In this document: one piece after another, positions 10,701 through 30,932 of the stretch
Layout: each line of letters opens with the position of its first letter
Numbering within the stretch: the first letter of the stretch is position 1
Assembly (NCBI GenBank): GCA_937892025.1
Contig: CALAVA010000042.1
Span: 739 to 64,738, forward strand
Direction of reading: 5' to 3'
Length of the DNA: 64,000 nt
From: an uncultured Bacteroidales bacterium
GTDB taxonomy: Bacteria > Bacteroidota > Bacteroidia > Bacteroidales > WCHB1-69
Notes under the pieces: generated by a model
Seen by the model: the letters and a program-made list of their open reading frames with translations, nothing else
Database searches by the model: none
Told to the model about the DNA's origin: nothing
Translations under genes and position numbers: made by a program

Positions 10701-10708
10701 TAACTTTG
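10701..10708 (+). promoter_or_regulatory. Bacteroidetes-type -7 promoter motif TAACTTTG
   Basis: Matches TAnnTTTG, about 93 nt upstream of tRNA-Ser. Confidence 0.5.
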
Positions 10709-10800: not shown

Positions 10801-10885
10801 GGAGGATTGGCAGAGTGGTAATGCAGCACATTGCTAACGTGTAACACGGTGAAACGTGTCGGTGGTTCGAGTCCATCATCCTCCG
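10801..10885 (+). tRNA. tRNA-Ser (anticodon GCU), long variable arm
   Basis: Hand-folded. Acceptor GGAGGAT/ATCCTCC. D-arm GCA-GAGTGGTAA-TGC. Anticodon loop TTGCTAA. Long variable arm. T-arm GGTGG-TTCGAGT-CCATC. Discriminator G. Confidence 0.8.
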
Positions 10886-12403: not shown

Positions 12404-12691
12404 ATGGCAAGCAGGACAGCGGAATATTATCGCACACACCCGAAAGCACGGAAGAAGCACGTTGAATACCAAAAAGAATACAACAAGAAAGAGGAGCAGG
12501 TAAAGAAACGTGTCGAATGTATTGAGCATAACCGTGAACATGACAAGAAATATGGCAAAGCATCACGCAAAGGCAAGGATGCAAGCCACACAAGTCACGG
12601 CATCGTTTACAAGTCCTCCTCCGCCAATCGTGGCAGCAAGTCAGATACCGCAGGTGACAGACGTGCGAGAGGTGGTAAAAAGAAAAAATAG
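12404..12691 (+). CDS. highly basic hypothetical protein (95 aa)
   Basis: ORF-track ORF; Lys/Arg-rich throughout. Confidence 0.45.
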   Translation: MASRTAEYYRTHPKARKKHVEYQKEYNKKEEQVKKRVECIEHNREHDKKYGKASRKGKDASHTSHGIVYKSSSANRGSKSDTAGDRRARGGKKKK

Positions 12692-16576: not shown

Positions 16577-17287
16577 ATGAGAAAGAAAATCATCTACTAC
16601 AACAAAGTGGAACTCGAAGCACTGCGATACTGTGCAAGGGTGATGGACTTTGGTGTGTCACTAACACTTACCGCCGCATTGAACGAAATGCTGAACGCTT
16701 ACCTGCTGCTGCGTGAGGATAAAAGGTTTAGGCACAAACTGAAACAATTAGCCAACGAAGCCGACAGAAAAGCAACCATGCAGAAAGCAACCATCATGTC
16801 CGTTATGCGTGACAGAAAGTTCTTTGACGATTATTCCGACAAGGTTATCGACTTGGCAGAAAAAGACATTACTGACTTTCGGATGGGCATAAAACAGATG
16901 CTTGACGAAAACGGCATCAAGGATAGCGAACTGATAGCACAATGCGAAACCGCATCCGTATTGCTGAAACTTTCCGTTGAACACTACCATGTGACCATTA
17001 GCAAGACAAAGGAAAAGTTCAAGTGCAGACTACCTGATTCATGCCCTGAATTTAACGCTGAAAACCTGACGAACACTTGGGATGCGGTATGCAAACTGCT
17101 TTATTCCAACAGGCAGGAGGATGTTGACCTGAATGCGGAACAAAACAAAATCTTGTTTGAAAGAATGGCAAAAGGATTCTGCGATGGACAATACACAAAA
17201 GAATGTCTGCAAGAGGCACAAAGGCTACACCCAGAATTTACAGAGAACGACATTAAAGTAACTGACGAAACAGAAGAACAGAAATGA
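16577..17287 (+). CDS. hypothetical protein (about 236 aa)
   Basis: Internal ATG (MRKKIIYYNK) of ORF 16424..17287; two small TM micro-ORFs appear to occupy 16351-16580. Confidence 0.5.
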   Translation: MRKKIIYYNKVELEALRYCARVMDFGVSLTLTAALNEMLNAYLLLREDKRFRHKLKQLANEADRKATMQKATIMSVMRDRKFFDDYSDKVIDLAEKDITDFRMGIKQMLDENGIKDSELIAQCETASVLLKLSVEHYHVTISKTKEKFKCRLPDSCPEFNAENLTNTWDAVCKLLYSNRQEDVDLNAEQNKILFERMAKGFCDGQYTKECLQEAQRLHPEFTENDIKVTDETEEQK

Positions 17288-17514
17288 GTACAACAACACA
17301 ATGGGTTGCCGAAGAGGAAAAACGGCAAAGAAGAGAAAAGGCCATTGTCACCAAAGCAAGAGAGGTTGAAAAGGAAAGAATGGATAGAGGATGGCAATAT
17401 GTTGAACTGACAAAGCAGATGAAGATTCTGGTTCCATGCGACATTTACGGCAATCCAACAAAGAAGGGACTTGAACGTATGGAGGAAAGAAGAAAATCTT
17501 TATGCGTTTTGTAA
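17284..17514 (+). CDS. hypothetical protein (76 aa)
   Basis: ORF-track ORF, ATGA start/stop overlap with the previous gene. Confidence 0.5.
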   Translation: MSTTTQWVAEEEKRQRREKAIVTKAREVEKERMDRGWQYVELTKQMKILVPCDIYGNPTKKGLERMEERRKSLCVL

Positions 17515-17554
17515 CTTTTAACACTTATTATTTGGTATATTCCAAACAAAGTTG

Positions 17555-17562
17555 TAACTTTG
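17555..17562 (+). promoter_or_regulatory. Bacteroidetes-type -7 promoter motif TAACTTTG
   Basis: Matches TAnnTTTG; the predicted start site falls at or near G17575. Confidence 0.5.
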
Positions 17563-17574
17563 CAACAATTTCAA

Positions 17575-17720
17575 GGGGATGCTCGGTGCTTGACCTCACT
17601 GAATCAAAAGAAGTATAACAGGGGAGTTGGTCGCAGCAGTCCTGCCTTTCTAAAAGTTCTTTTGAGCCGAAGGGACTGTGTAGGAGGTCTCATAAGGGAG
17701 TTCGATTCTCCCTATCCCTA
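17575..17720 (+). ncRNA. about 146-nt tRNA-like RNA of non-canonical length (tmRNA-TLD-like ends)
   Basis: 5' GGGGATG pairs with 3' TATCCCT (7 bp, two G-U). A perfect T-arm GGGAG-TTCGATT-CTCCC sits directly before the 3' strand. GACCTC (17592-97) pairs with GAGGTC (17684-89). No ORF; promoter directly upstream. Confidence 0.5.
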
Positions 17721-17748
17721 CTAACTTGAAAACGAAAACAAAAGATTT

Positions 17749-18090
17749 ATGAAGAAAGAACGCAACGAAACACTGCAAGCCTTGTGCCGTGACTATCTTT
17801 CAAGACTGAAACATCTTGCAAAGAAACATGGTCTCGATGCTTGGCTGGACAACTTGATTAAGGCTAACAGAAACAAAGATTGTACGGCAACGGAATATGA
17901 AGTGATGATGCTGTCAAGATGTGTTAATGACGAACGCATCAAACGTACCGATGTGCCAATCATCCTTGGTAAGCCGTACAATCAATGTTATAATGACAAT
18001 GACTTTGACCGCATTAAGAAACTTGCACCTGTTGGCATCTATTCAAAGGTTAGTACGCTGTTGTATGCGGATAAACTTAAAACTATATAA
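17749..18090 (+). CDS. hypothetical protein (113 aa)
   Basis: ORF-track ORF. Confidence 0.5.
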   Translation: MKKERNETLQALCRDYLSRLKHLAKKHGLDAWLDNLIKANRNKDCTATEYEVMMLSRCVNDERIKRTDVPIILGKPYNQCYNDNDFDRIKKLAPVGIYSKVSTLLYADKLKTI

Positions 18091-30537: not shown

Positions 30538-30545
30538 TAACTTTG
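30538..30545 (+). promoter_or_regulatory. Bacteroidetes-type -7 promoter motif TAACTTTG
   Basis: Matches TAnnTTTG at the head of a 450-bp ORF-free interval. Confidence 0.5.
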
Positions 30546-30552
30546 CAACATC

Positions 30553-30822
30553 TTACGGCGGTAAGGTTCTCACTTTATCAATTAGAAGAAGGATTTTTCG
30601 GAAATTCGTATCAAAAATTTTACTTTTTTTTGAAACATCAAGGAATGGTCTGTGAAGATAGTTCCTTTCTTATGAAACACTCCGACCAAAGATAGCCTTT
30701 CAGCGATGAAAGGTGGGAGCAGCGGACGTAACTCTTTGCAAGCGTCAGGAAACAAATCGCAAAGACTCTGCCATAGAAAGATAGGTTAGTAAAAGATAGA
30801 GGTTCGAGTCCTCCGCTGCTTA
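30553..30822 (+). ncRNA. about 270-nt non-coding RNA candidate ending in a tRNA-like module
   Basis: No ORF of 60 aa or more. At the 3' end, T-arm GAGG-TTCGAGT-CCTC is followed by CGCTGCT, which pairs perfectly with AGCAGCG at 30718-30724. Hairpin cctttc-agcgat-gaaagg lies at 30696-30713. Confidence 0.45.
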
Positions 30823-30932
30823 CAAATAAATAGTTCTACCCCGAAGTTGAGAAGAATGATGCTGTAAAACAAGAAACGTACAGAAATCGCCAAGCAGCAT
30901 CATTCTCTCTTCCTTTCACGAAAACAACAGAA

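Follow-up and report, generated by a model that had tools for sequence, protein, structure and literature searches.

A promoter-to-RNA cassette with a putative 146-nt non-decoding, tRNA-shaped RNA inserted in a Bacteroidales phage contig

The stretch of DNA analysed here (the window, 64,000 nt) represents nearly the entire 64.8-kb contig C42, which was binned into an incomplete (71%) Bacteroidales metagenome-assembled genome. Its genes are phage-like and include a DnaB-type helicase/primase, a beta clamp, HNH endonucleases, a methyltransferase and numerous small ORFs. Among cultured phages, Bacteroides phage C3_41T2LP is the closest; its homologue of a gene neighbouring the element described below is 43% identical at the protein level, and it has no equivalent RNA at the corresponding position. 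A single RNA gene was recognised in the window using ARAGORN and Rfam, a tRNA-Ser(GCU) at 10801; a second odd tRNA-like unit was observed at 30718. The locus itself comprises the following features (window coordinates):

17284..17514, + strand: upstream 76-aa gene, which in relatives adjoins the 113-aa gene directly
17511..17737, + strand: inserted cassette consisting of promoter, RNA and ~20-nt trailer, missing in the closest relative (L014)
17531..17534, + strand: TTTG, the -33 element of a promoter of Bacteroidota type; a 20-nt spacer separates it from the -7 box
17555..17566, + strand: -7 box TAACTTTG (17555-17562), extended as the 12-mer TAACTTTGCAAC
17575..17720, + strand: predicted 146-nt tRNA-shaped RNA, from acceptor-stem G1 to the discriminator A; CCA not encoded
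17575..17581, + strand: acceptor-stem 5' strand GGGGAUG, pairing without mismatch with 17713-17719
17582..17594, + strand: D-loop-like segment CUCGGUGCUUGAC with tmRNA-type GG..UUGAC, by comparison with 8 Bacteroidales tmRNAs
17583..17602, + strand: competing D-arm-like hairpin (RNA positions 9-14/23-28; 6-bp stem, 8-nt loop), probability 0.71-0.79, part of the minimum-free-energy fold
17592..17597, + strand: 5' strand GACCUC of a P2-like helix, pairing with 17684-17689 at a probability of 0.165
17619..17687, + strand: two internal hairpins (17619-17644 and 17646-17687), z = -2.14; 5/200 shuffles fold equally well
17684..17689, + strand: 3' strand GAGGUC of the P2-like helix, partner of 17592-17597
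17696..17712, + strand: T arm GGGAG-UUCGAUU-CUCCC with canonical 7-nt T loop and 5-bp stem, pair probability 0.97
17713..17720, + strand: acceptor-stem 3' strand UAUCCCU and discriminator A; position 70 is C
17749..18090, + strand: downstream 113-aa gene, with 581 homologues in metagenomes

No terminator-like sites were found on the + strand between 17720 and 17749, and the 113-aa gene and the 146-nt RNA are therefore probably co-transcribed.

An earlier note on this DNA had described a consensus promoter followed by a tRNA-like RNA with tmRNA-like ends. Every sequence quoted there was present where the note placed it, and the promoter proved to be a full Bacteroidota -33/-7 promoter (TTTG, 20-nt spacer, TAACTTTG), with its -33 element lying within a 45-60-nt promoter consensus common to other promoters of the window. 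Bipartite -33/-7 sites numbered 8 in the window, compared with 2.7 +/- 1.6 in shuffles, and seven of the eight were intergenic and oriented toward the next gene. The 12-mer TAACTTTGCAAC occurred exactly three times in the window (10701, 17555 and 30538), in each case preceding an RNA-like unit, namely tRNA-Ser(GCU) at 10801, the 146-nt element and the tRNA-like unit at 30718. A variant, TACCTTTGCAA, was present at three protein-gene promoters (9697, 23450 and 34991). The promoter is a strong one, of the type that the phage uses for its RNA units.

The two ends of the element were found to close on each other as had been claimed, GGGGAUG pairing with UAUCCCU in a 7-bp acceptor stem with 0 mismatches and two G.U pairs (1:72 and 7:66). 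Acceptor pairs 1-6 were predicted to form with probabilities of 0.87-0.99 and the T arm, a perfect canonical one, with 0.97. The 23-mer formed by T arm and acceptor strand is identical to that of a real phage tRNA-Gly(TCC) (L003) and of tRNA-Pro(TGG) (L004). The 3:70 pair is G-C, and the alanine identity pair G3:U70 is missing. A generic search for a T arm followed by a 3' strand with a 7-nt partner no more than 320 nt away recovered only the tRNA-Ser and the 146-nt element in the window; the same module also fired in 12% of shuffled windows, and closure by itself is therefore weak evidence.

ARAGORN at default settings detected no tRNA, tmRNA or intron-containing form in the element, and Rfam returned no match at the gathering threshold and no RF00005 tRNA at E <= 10, a 14.9-bit tRNA-Sec match resting on the T arm being the sole result of a permissive local Rfam scan. 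Neither program, both proposed as checks in the earlier note, assigns the element to tRNA or tmRNA, which agrees with its statement that no standard class fits. Of the parts of an RF00005 tRNA, the acceptor stem and T arm are present and the D arm and anticodon stem-loop are missing; no 5-bp stem with a 7-nt anticodon loop was found at the canonical distance. The proposal of a decoy against anticodon nucleases was not supported, as the element has no anticodon stem-loop to cut.

It had also been suggested that the element is an interrupted or intron-containing tRNA, for instance a CUA suppressor, which would become a normal tRNA once the insert was removed. In line with this, ARAGORN at a 70% threshold with introns allowed drew a 'tRNA-Pyl(CUA)' spanning 17620-17721, the heptamer UUCUAAA would give it a legal anticodon loop, and the acceptor stem and T arm of this 3' portion are similar to those of a host-family tRNA-Trp. 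However, the 'tRNA-Pyl' model requires three stem mismatches (acceptor, D and anticodon), a 10-nt intron and a 26-nt variable arm, and appears neither at default ARAGORN thresholds nor in the Rfam tRNA search at E <= 10. Runs of ARAGORN with introns, lowered thresholds and mitochondrial mode produced junk only, with nothing past the T arm, and neither splicing machinery nor a group I intron was detected. Finally, when ~6,000 single-deletion variants (20-110 nt removed) were submitted to ARAGORN, none gave a cloverleaf built on the element's well-paired acceptor stem, the 5 calls obtained being junk with mismatched acceptor stems throughout. An interrupted tRNA is thus not supported, and we consider it very improbable.

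Folding of the whole RNA gave a z-score of -1.18 and folding of its interior -0.64, no better than shuffled sequence, compared with -2.91 for the tRNA-Ser of the window and -4.57 for T4 rnaC. Excess structure in the interior was modest and confined to the two internal hairpins at 17619-17687. Three incompatible interior folds were predicted within 3.3 kcal/mol: the minimum-free-energy fold (-48.8 kcal/mol), with the D-arm-like hairpin 9-14/23-28 and the two internal hairpins; a cloverleaf-like fold (-46.3 kcal/mol), with a perfect 9-bp helix between 17604-17612 and 17657-17665; and a TLD-like fold (that is, resembling the tRNA-like domain of tmRNA) with the P2 helix (-45.5 kcal/mol), 3.3 kcal/mol above the minimum. 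The P2-like helix reported earlier for GACCTC and GAGGTC was predicted no better than chance, its probability of 0.165 being outcompeted by hairpin 9-14/23-28 (0.79). The suboptimal cloverleaf-like fold, with its D-like arm, long central arm, variable-type arm and T arm, recalls class II or long-armed tRNAs (Leu, Ser, Tyr; allo-tRNAs), but unlike these the element has no anticodon stem-loop at the expected place, its D-like loop has no GG, and tRNA models fail on it. No significant internal tandem duplication was seen in the element. A 54-codon TTG frame spanning it is without an ATG start, and relatives have nothing comparable; the short frame GCA GCA GUC CUG CCU UUC UAA pointed out earlier is present, with nothing found in its support. 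All of these structural statements refer to one sequence, the known copies being identical.

The 5' end of the element was compared with those of 8 Bacteroidales tmRNAs, the consensus of which is GGGGYUG-NYYGGWUUUGAC. The sequence GGGGAUGCUCGGUGCUUGAC (GGGGAUG-CUCGGUGCUUGAC) shares 17 of the 19 consensus positions, one extra base being inserted, and the likeness to the tmRNA TLD reported in the earlier note is thereby upheld. The GG..UUGAC motif was found in all 8 Bacteroidales tmRNAs and in the TLD-only RNA L175 (see below), and in 0 of 137 tRNAs; T[TC]GAC at positions 8-24 was present in 0/42 tRNAs of the genome and 0/95 tRNAs of the fetched loci. The comparison places a tmRNA-type D-loop analogue directly after the acceptor 5' strand, where its GG may be sequestered by the competing hairpin. 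The tmRNA-like 5' end is real yet undiagnostic; the likeness does not extend past the 5' 20 nt and the topology (acceptor, loop, long helix, T arm). In other respects the element differs from bacterial tmRNA (RF00023): it is 146 nt long as opposed to ~370 nt, has no pseudoknots or canonical tag, carries G3-C70 where 8/8 host-order tmRNAs and L175 have G3:U70, and has a 6-nt UCAUAA in place of the conserved GGAC before the T stem. The Rfam tmRNA families gave no match to the element at E <= 10, and a scan of its own genome with RF00023 listed ordinary tRNAs and not the element.

Two covariance models of the TLD were employed, one derived from tmRNA ends and not spanning long inserts (R1), the other with an insert-tolerant P2 loop (R2). 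R2 aligned the element end to end at exactly 17575-17720 and chose GACCUC/GAGGUC as its P2a, despite the low pair probability and the UCAUAA linker. The score was 19.1 bits, compared with 25.4 for tRNA-Gly, 23.8 for tRNA-Gln, 21.0 for tRNA-Pro, 19.0 for tRNA-Leu and 61.7 for L175, the last of which reached 45.3 bits on R1. Because of this score and the replacement of GGAC by UCAUAA, membership of the TLD family is not established. L175 itself (12540-12600), identified in a pattern scan of IMG/VR, is a textbook TLD-only RNA of 61 nt, made up of a GGGGAUG start, GGAUUGAC, a 4-bp P2a, GGAC, a T arm and CAUCUCC with G3:U70. In common with TLD-only RNAs of this sort (DS6A type, L175), the element is phage-borne and has the GGGGAUG acceptor 5' strand, the GG..UUGAC D-loop, a candidate helix beginning at GAC, a T arm and no plausible tag function. 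It differs from L175 (G3:U70, GGAC, 4-bp P2a hairpin, 61 nt, 45-62 bits) in its G3-C70 pair, its UCAUAA, its 86-nt insert and its score of 19 bits.

These comparisons bear on two earlier or alternative proposals. A working mini-tmRNA with the tag (A)AAVLPF would be consistent with the short GCA-to-UAA frame inside the insert and with the TLD-like ends, but the element is without the alanine identity pair, the 3' GGAC and pseudoknots, the end of the tag is non-canonical, and ARAGORN and the tmRNA covariance models are silent. In addition, host genomes of the same genus carry a normal 370-nt tmRNA with the tag GENNNFALAA, although the assembly of the window's own genome, which is incomplete, lacks one. 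Together with the R2 score, these observations leave the mini-tmRNA claim unsupported and make it scarcely credible.

The second proposal is that an uncharged TLD mimic binds host SmpB, or enters stalled ribosomes unproductively, and so would dampen host trans-translation during infection. The RNA of mycobacteriophage DS6A is little more than a TLD, a 'CDS-less' tmRNA (PMC4131195; PMC11915505), and a TLD-only molecule is reported in both papers, which cite Mao 2009, to inhibit tmRNA whether or not it is alanine-chargeable, perhaps through titration of SmpB. This precedent (PMC4131195) is joined by the 17/19 agreement of the 5' 20 nt with the Bacteroidales tmRNA consensus, by an acceptor 5' strand equal to that of L175, and by the end-to-end R2 alignment with GACCUC/GAGGUC as P2a. 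However, the absence of G3:U70, the UCAUAA beside the T stem, an R2 score below those of tRNA-Gly, tRNA-Gln and tRNA-Pro and far below either score of L175, the silence of the Rfam tmRNA models and ARAGORN, and the P2 probability of 0.165 all speak against it, and SmpB titration by a TLD mimic seems unlikely. Antisense pairing of the element to host tmRNA was no better than that of shuffles. At similar, slightly longer odds, the element could be a non-chargeable chimera in which a 5' D-loop module of tmRNA type is combined with a T arm and acceptor stem of tRNA type and with the 86-nt insert; this chimera would be made at the head of the early operon and sequester SmpB or another elbow-reading factor, shutting off host ribosome rescue. 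Such a chimera, if true, would constitute a new alanine-independent branch of phage TLD-only RNAs.

A YrlA-type mimic was not supported. YrlA and other bacterial Y RNAs are likewise non-coding RNAs with a T-arm-like module, but they use their ends for the Ro-binding stem and have the tRNA-like part inside, whereas the ends of the element form the acceptor stem itself; Rfam gave no match, and this claim of the earlier note was not borne out. Taken as a whole, the observations of that note were partly confirmed and its interpretation partly supported.

The closest relative (L014, an ENA assembly) shows 91% identity to the window as far as 17510 and 71.5% from 17738 onward, and holds 6 nt where the window has 227 nt, corresponding to an insertion of 215-227 bp. 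As delimited by eye, the insert extends from the -33 region to ~20 nt beyond the acceptor strand, which amounts to one promoter-to-RNA unit. In other relatives the neighbouring genes adjoin directly, with no cassette. The cassette was 100% identical in three bioreactor-metagenome haplotypes (that of the window, L089-L091 and L092/L093), the flanks of which differ from the window by 1-2.7%, and the identical block measured 567 nt (17331-17897). Judged from these alignments, such a block would fit either selection or a recent recombinational sweep.

Searches for further copies were conducted in several collections. Alignment of the cassette to 50,697 phage records using blastn returned tRNA T arms only, with no sequence similarity to T4 rnaC or rnaD, and the element was not found in INPHARED phages, nor with exact and gapped patterns in IMG/VR and JGI metagenomes. 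Among GTDB species representatives there were 48 pattern matches, none with a pairing acceptor, and 152 host-family genomes contained no copy. The neighbourhoods of 113-aa-gene homologues (ENA, Logan and JGI) yielded no element beyond the three haplotypes, and no copy was present in 80 related rumen-metagenome JGI loci (369 kb). The rest of the host metagenome-assembled genome, including CRISPR repeats and a possible donor locus, gave chance 12-16-mers only. With the element absent from all other collections searched and its known copies identical, no covariation was obtainable. The RNA genes in the 369 kb of related loci were all tRNA-Gln(UUG), each with its own promoter, and RNA cassettes thus come and go in this phage group. 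Collectively, the comparisons suggest that the element was recently inserted and is lineage-specific.

The T arm and 3' acceptor strand could in principle be an attP-type fragment, a phage copy of a host tRNA 3' end serving integration, in which case GGGGATG would be coincidental. The T-arm/acceptor region does match host-family tRNA-Leu and tRNA-Trp (86-95% over 22-30 nt). However, an identical host tRNA was not found in the incomplete (71%) metagenome-assembled genome, a Pfam scan of the 10 large ORFs revealed a single recombinase, a resolvase-type protein of 271 aa encoded 12 kb away, and the unit is an insertion within an early operon that brings its own promoter. The attP explanation is accordingly a remote one, ranking just behind the interrupted tRNA. 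These two, a true mini-tmRNA and explanations not considered here share the probability left over by the readings discussed above and below.

We favour, with a probability of about 0.4, the view that the element is a real non-decoding, tRNA- or TLD-shaped small RNA, of the same kind as T4 species 1 RNA and the phage TLD-only RNAs; a minor share of this probability goes to a decoy for SmpB in particular. The cassette would then be a self-contained RNA gene, consisting of an 'RNA-gene' promoter and the 146-nt RNA, that was inserted between two adjacent early genes. The RNA would keep those parts of a tRNA that are gripped by cellular enzymes, a 7-bp acceptor stem stacked on a canonical T arm, while the D and anticodon arms would have been replaced by ~114 nt of unrelated, weakly structured sequence, the first 13 nt of which resemble the D-loop of the tmRNA TLD.

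Bacterial RNase P cuts RNAs that present an acceptor stem stacked on a T stem. At their 3' ends, tRNAs are freed by endonucleases and then completed by the CCA-adding enzyme. From this it follows that the operon transcript should split into a ~146-nt tRNA-shaped RNA and the downstream mRNA. Transcription would start ~6-8 nt upstream of G17575, and RNase P would probably trim the short leader at G1, maturing the RNA from the 5' end of the operon transcript. An endonucleolytic cut after A17720 would free it from the downstream mRNA, the CCA-adding enzyme may append CCA, and this processing would punctuate the operon transcript as a side effect. With no anticodon arm the product would be unable to decode, and with no G3:U70 it would not be charged by AlaRS; any activity would therefore be that of a look-alike binding a factor that recognises tRNAs or TLDs. 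Most likely, the product would act by occupying such a tRNA-binding factor.

Several observations favour a non-decoding small RNA: the boundaries of the cassette relative to L014 coincide with the promoter-to-RNA unit; the promoter is of the TAACTTTGCAAC type, the stems are paired, the 5' end is TLD-like and the layout is that of T4 rnaC; and nothing within the cassette distinguishes the three haplotypes, against differences of 1-2.7% in their flanks. Others count against it, namely that no homologue was found beyond the three near-identical haplotypes, that the folding z-scores (-1.18; interior -0.64) are not significant when set against the -4.57 of T4 rnaC, that the three interior folds within 3.3 kcal/mol are mutually exclusive, and that the identical 567-nt block could reflect recent recombination and not selection.

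Almost as likely as a non-decoding RNA is a neutral relic. Here the promoter would be the functional part, boosting the downstream operon, and the tRNA-like part a decaying or chimeric tRNA or TLD fragment, now at most a 5' untranslated leader. Long leaders of 100-250 nt are common behind such promoters in relatives of this phage group, and with no terminator following the element, the RNA could be a mere leader. The youth and lineage specificity of the element, which neither L014 (91% identical upstream) nor the 369 kb of related phage sequence contains, the lack of excess structure in its interior, and the chance occurrence of T-arm-plus-closure modules in 12% of shuffled windows are also in keeping with a relic. 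Less easily reconciled with it are the position of the acceptor 5' strand right at the predicted transcription start, the mismatch-free acceptor stem, the tmRNA-type D-loop motif that follows the 5' strand and occurs in 0/137 tRNAs, the gene-unit-like end of the cassette ~20 nt past the acceptor strand, and the 0 substitutions across three haplotypes.

The closest parallel in layout is T4 species 1 RNA (rnaC), which together with species 2 (rnaD) forms the stable small RNAs of the T4 tRNA cluster. It is 139 nt long, has a canonical T arm adjoining a closing stem made by the two ends of the RNA, carries extra hairpins in place of the decoding arms, and has no known function. The two differ in setting and in structure: T4 rnaC is embedded in an array of tRNA genes and folds strongly (z = -4.57), whereas the element is solitary, heads a protein operon and gives z = -1.18.

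To our knowledge, few non-decoding tRNA-shaped phage RNAs have been described (T4 species 1 and 2, and the DS6A TLD-only RNA), and their roles are largely unknown. If the element proves to be only a relic, it would show how promoter-plus-RNA cassettes are shuffled among these phages, and that tRNA-like ends, taken by themselves, say little about function. As a genuine small RNA, it would be a further member of this small group, from a Bacteroidales phage and combining the D-loop features of a tmRNA with a tRNA-like acceptor stem and T arm. Caught, as it appears, soon after insertion and with a close relative that does not carry the cassette, it would offer a clean natural comparison for what the phage gains from it.

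The promoter sequence TAACTTTGCAAC occurs at window positions 10701, 17555 and 30538, upstream of the three RNA units only (tRNA-Ser, the 146-nt tRNA-shaped element and a tRNA-like unit respectively), whereas TACCTTTGCAA is found at three protein-gene promoters of the window (9697, 23450 and 34991). These two promoter flavours may represent classes of different strength or timing.

The last of the three units, the second non-canonical tRNA-like unit of the window (30538-30905, forward strand), shares its promoter sequence with the element and is flanked on both sides by homing-endonuclease-type genes. Its RNA of 106 nt (30718-30823) starts ~170 nt past the promoter, is closed by a stem of 8-9 bp, AGCAGCGG(A)/(U)CCGCUGCU, adjoined by a 4-bp T stem (GAGG/CCUC), and is followed on the 3' side by a long terminator-like hairpin. 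This geometry resembles the 8/4 arrangement of tRNA-Sec and allo-tRNAs. The RNA received no call by ARAGORN and had no match in Rfam, and its folding gave z = -0.79.

Other compact or oversized tRNA-like RNAs were located on other phage and viral contigs, and are listed below together with notable regions of related phages.

Features on other phage and viral contigs
L175 12540-12600: canonical mini-tmRNA of 61 nt, consisting of the tRNA-like domain (TLD) only, on viral contig IMGVR_UViG_3300033148_007493
L002 419-465 (-): minihelix of acceptor plus T arm, 47 nt, on IMGVR_UViG_3300035502_000322
L024 4101-4221 (-) and L025 6979-7099 (+): oversized tRNA-like gene, 121 nt, close to phage-contig tRNA genes
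L024 5454-5535, L024 11332-11440 and L025 5910-6010: further modules of 82-109 nt without an ARAGORN call
L031 6158-7324, L030 11749-13912 and L034 7761-8960: notable regions of related phages

The mini-tmRNA comprises G3:U70, GGAUUGAC, a 4-bp P2a, GGAC and a T arm, and scored 45.3 bits against a TLD covariance model of tmRNA ends, its locus not being among the sequences used to build that model. The minihelix (GGGGAUG-UCUGUUGACGGCAAA-T arm-UAUCCCC-A) has a T arm identical to that of the element and a nearly identical acceptor; it carries a UUGAC motif, lacks both G3:U70 and P2, and lies directly 3' of a gene's stop codon, upstream of a terminator. The 121-nt gene was not called by ARAGORN; its acceptor stem is a perfect 7 bp, its D arm reads GUUUC-AAUGGAC-GAAAC, and it contains an internal hairpin of 8 bp.

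Related phages also carried an RtcB RNA ligase gene ~1 kb upstream of their tRNA-Gln, and a cluster of 7-deazaguanine genes (QueC/QueD/QueE/FolE). An IS605-type TnpB insertion, likewise found in these phages, is absent from the sister contig L033. In Bacteroides phage C3_41T2LP, an unannotated, G+C-rich gap of 207 nt with visible inverted repeats (L005 2791-2998; record 64495-64702) directly precedes the gene homologous to the 113-aa gene found downstream of the element. The gap, unrelated in sequence to the element, may represent a distinct leader or a small RNA of another kind.

Within the window's own metagenome-assembled genome, contig C259 contains 19 tRNA genes within ~8 kb (about 15.3-22.9 kb), which probably represents either another phage, one rich in tRNA genes, or an element binned in error.

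A block of 567 nt (window 17331-17897), with the cassette of promoter, element and short trailer at its centre, was identical in three haplotypes, while neighbouring sequence differed by 1-2.7%. This identity suggests that the cassette has recently spread by recombination, or is under selection.
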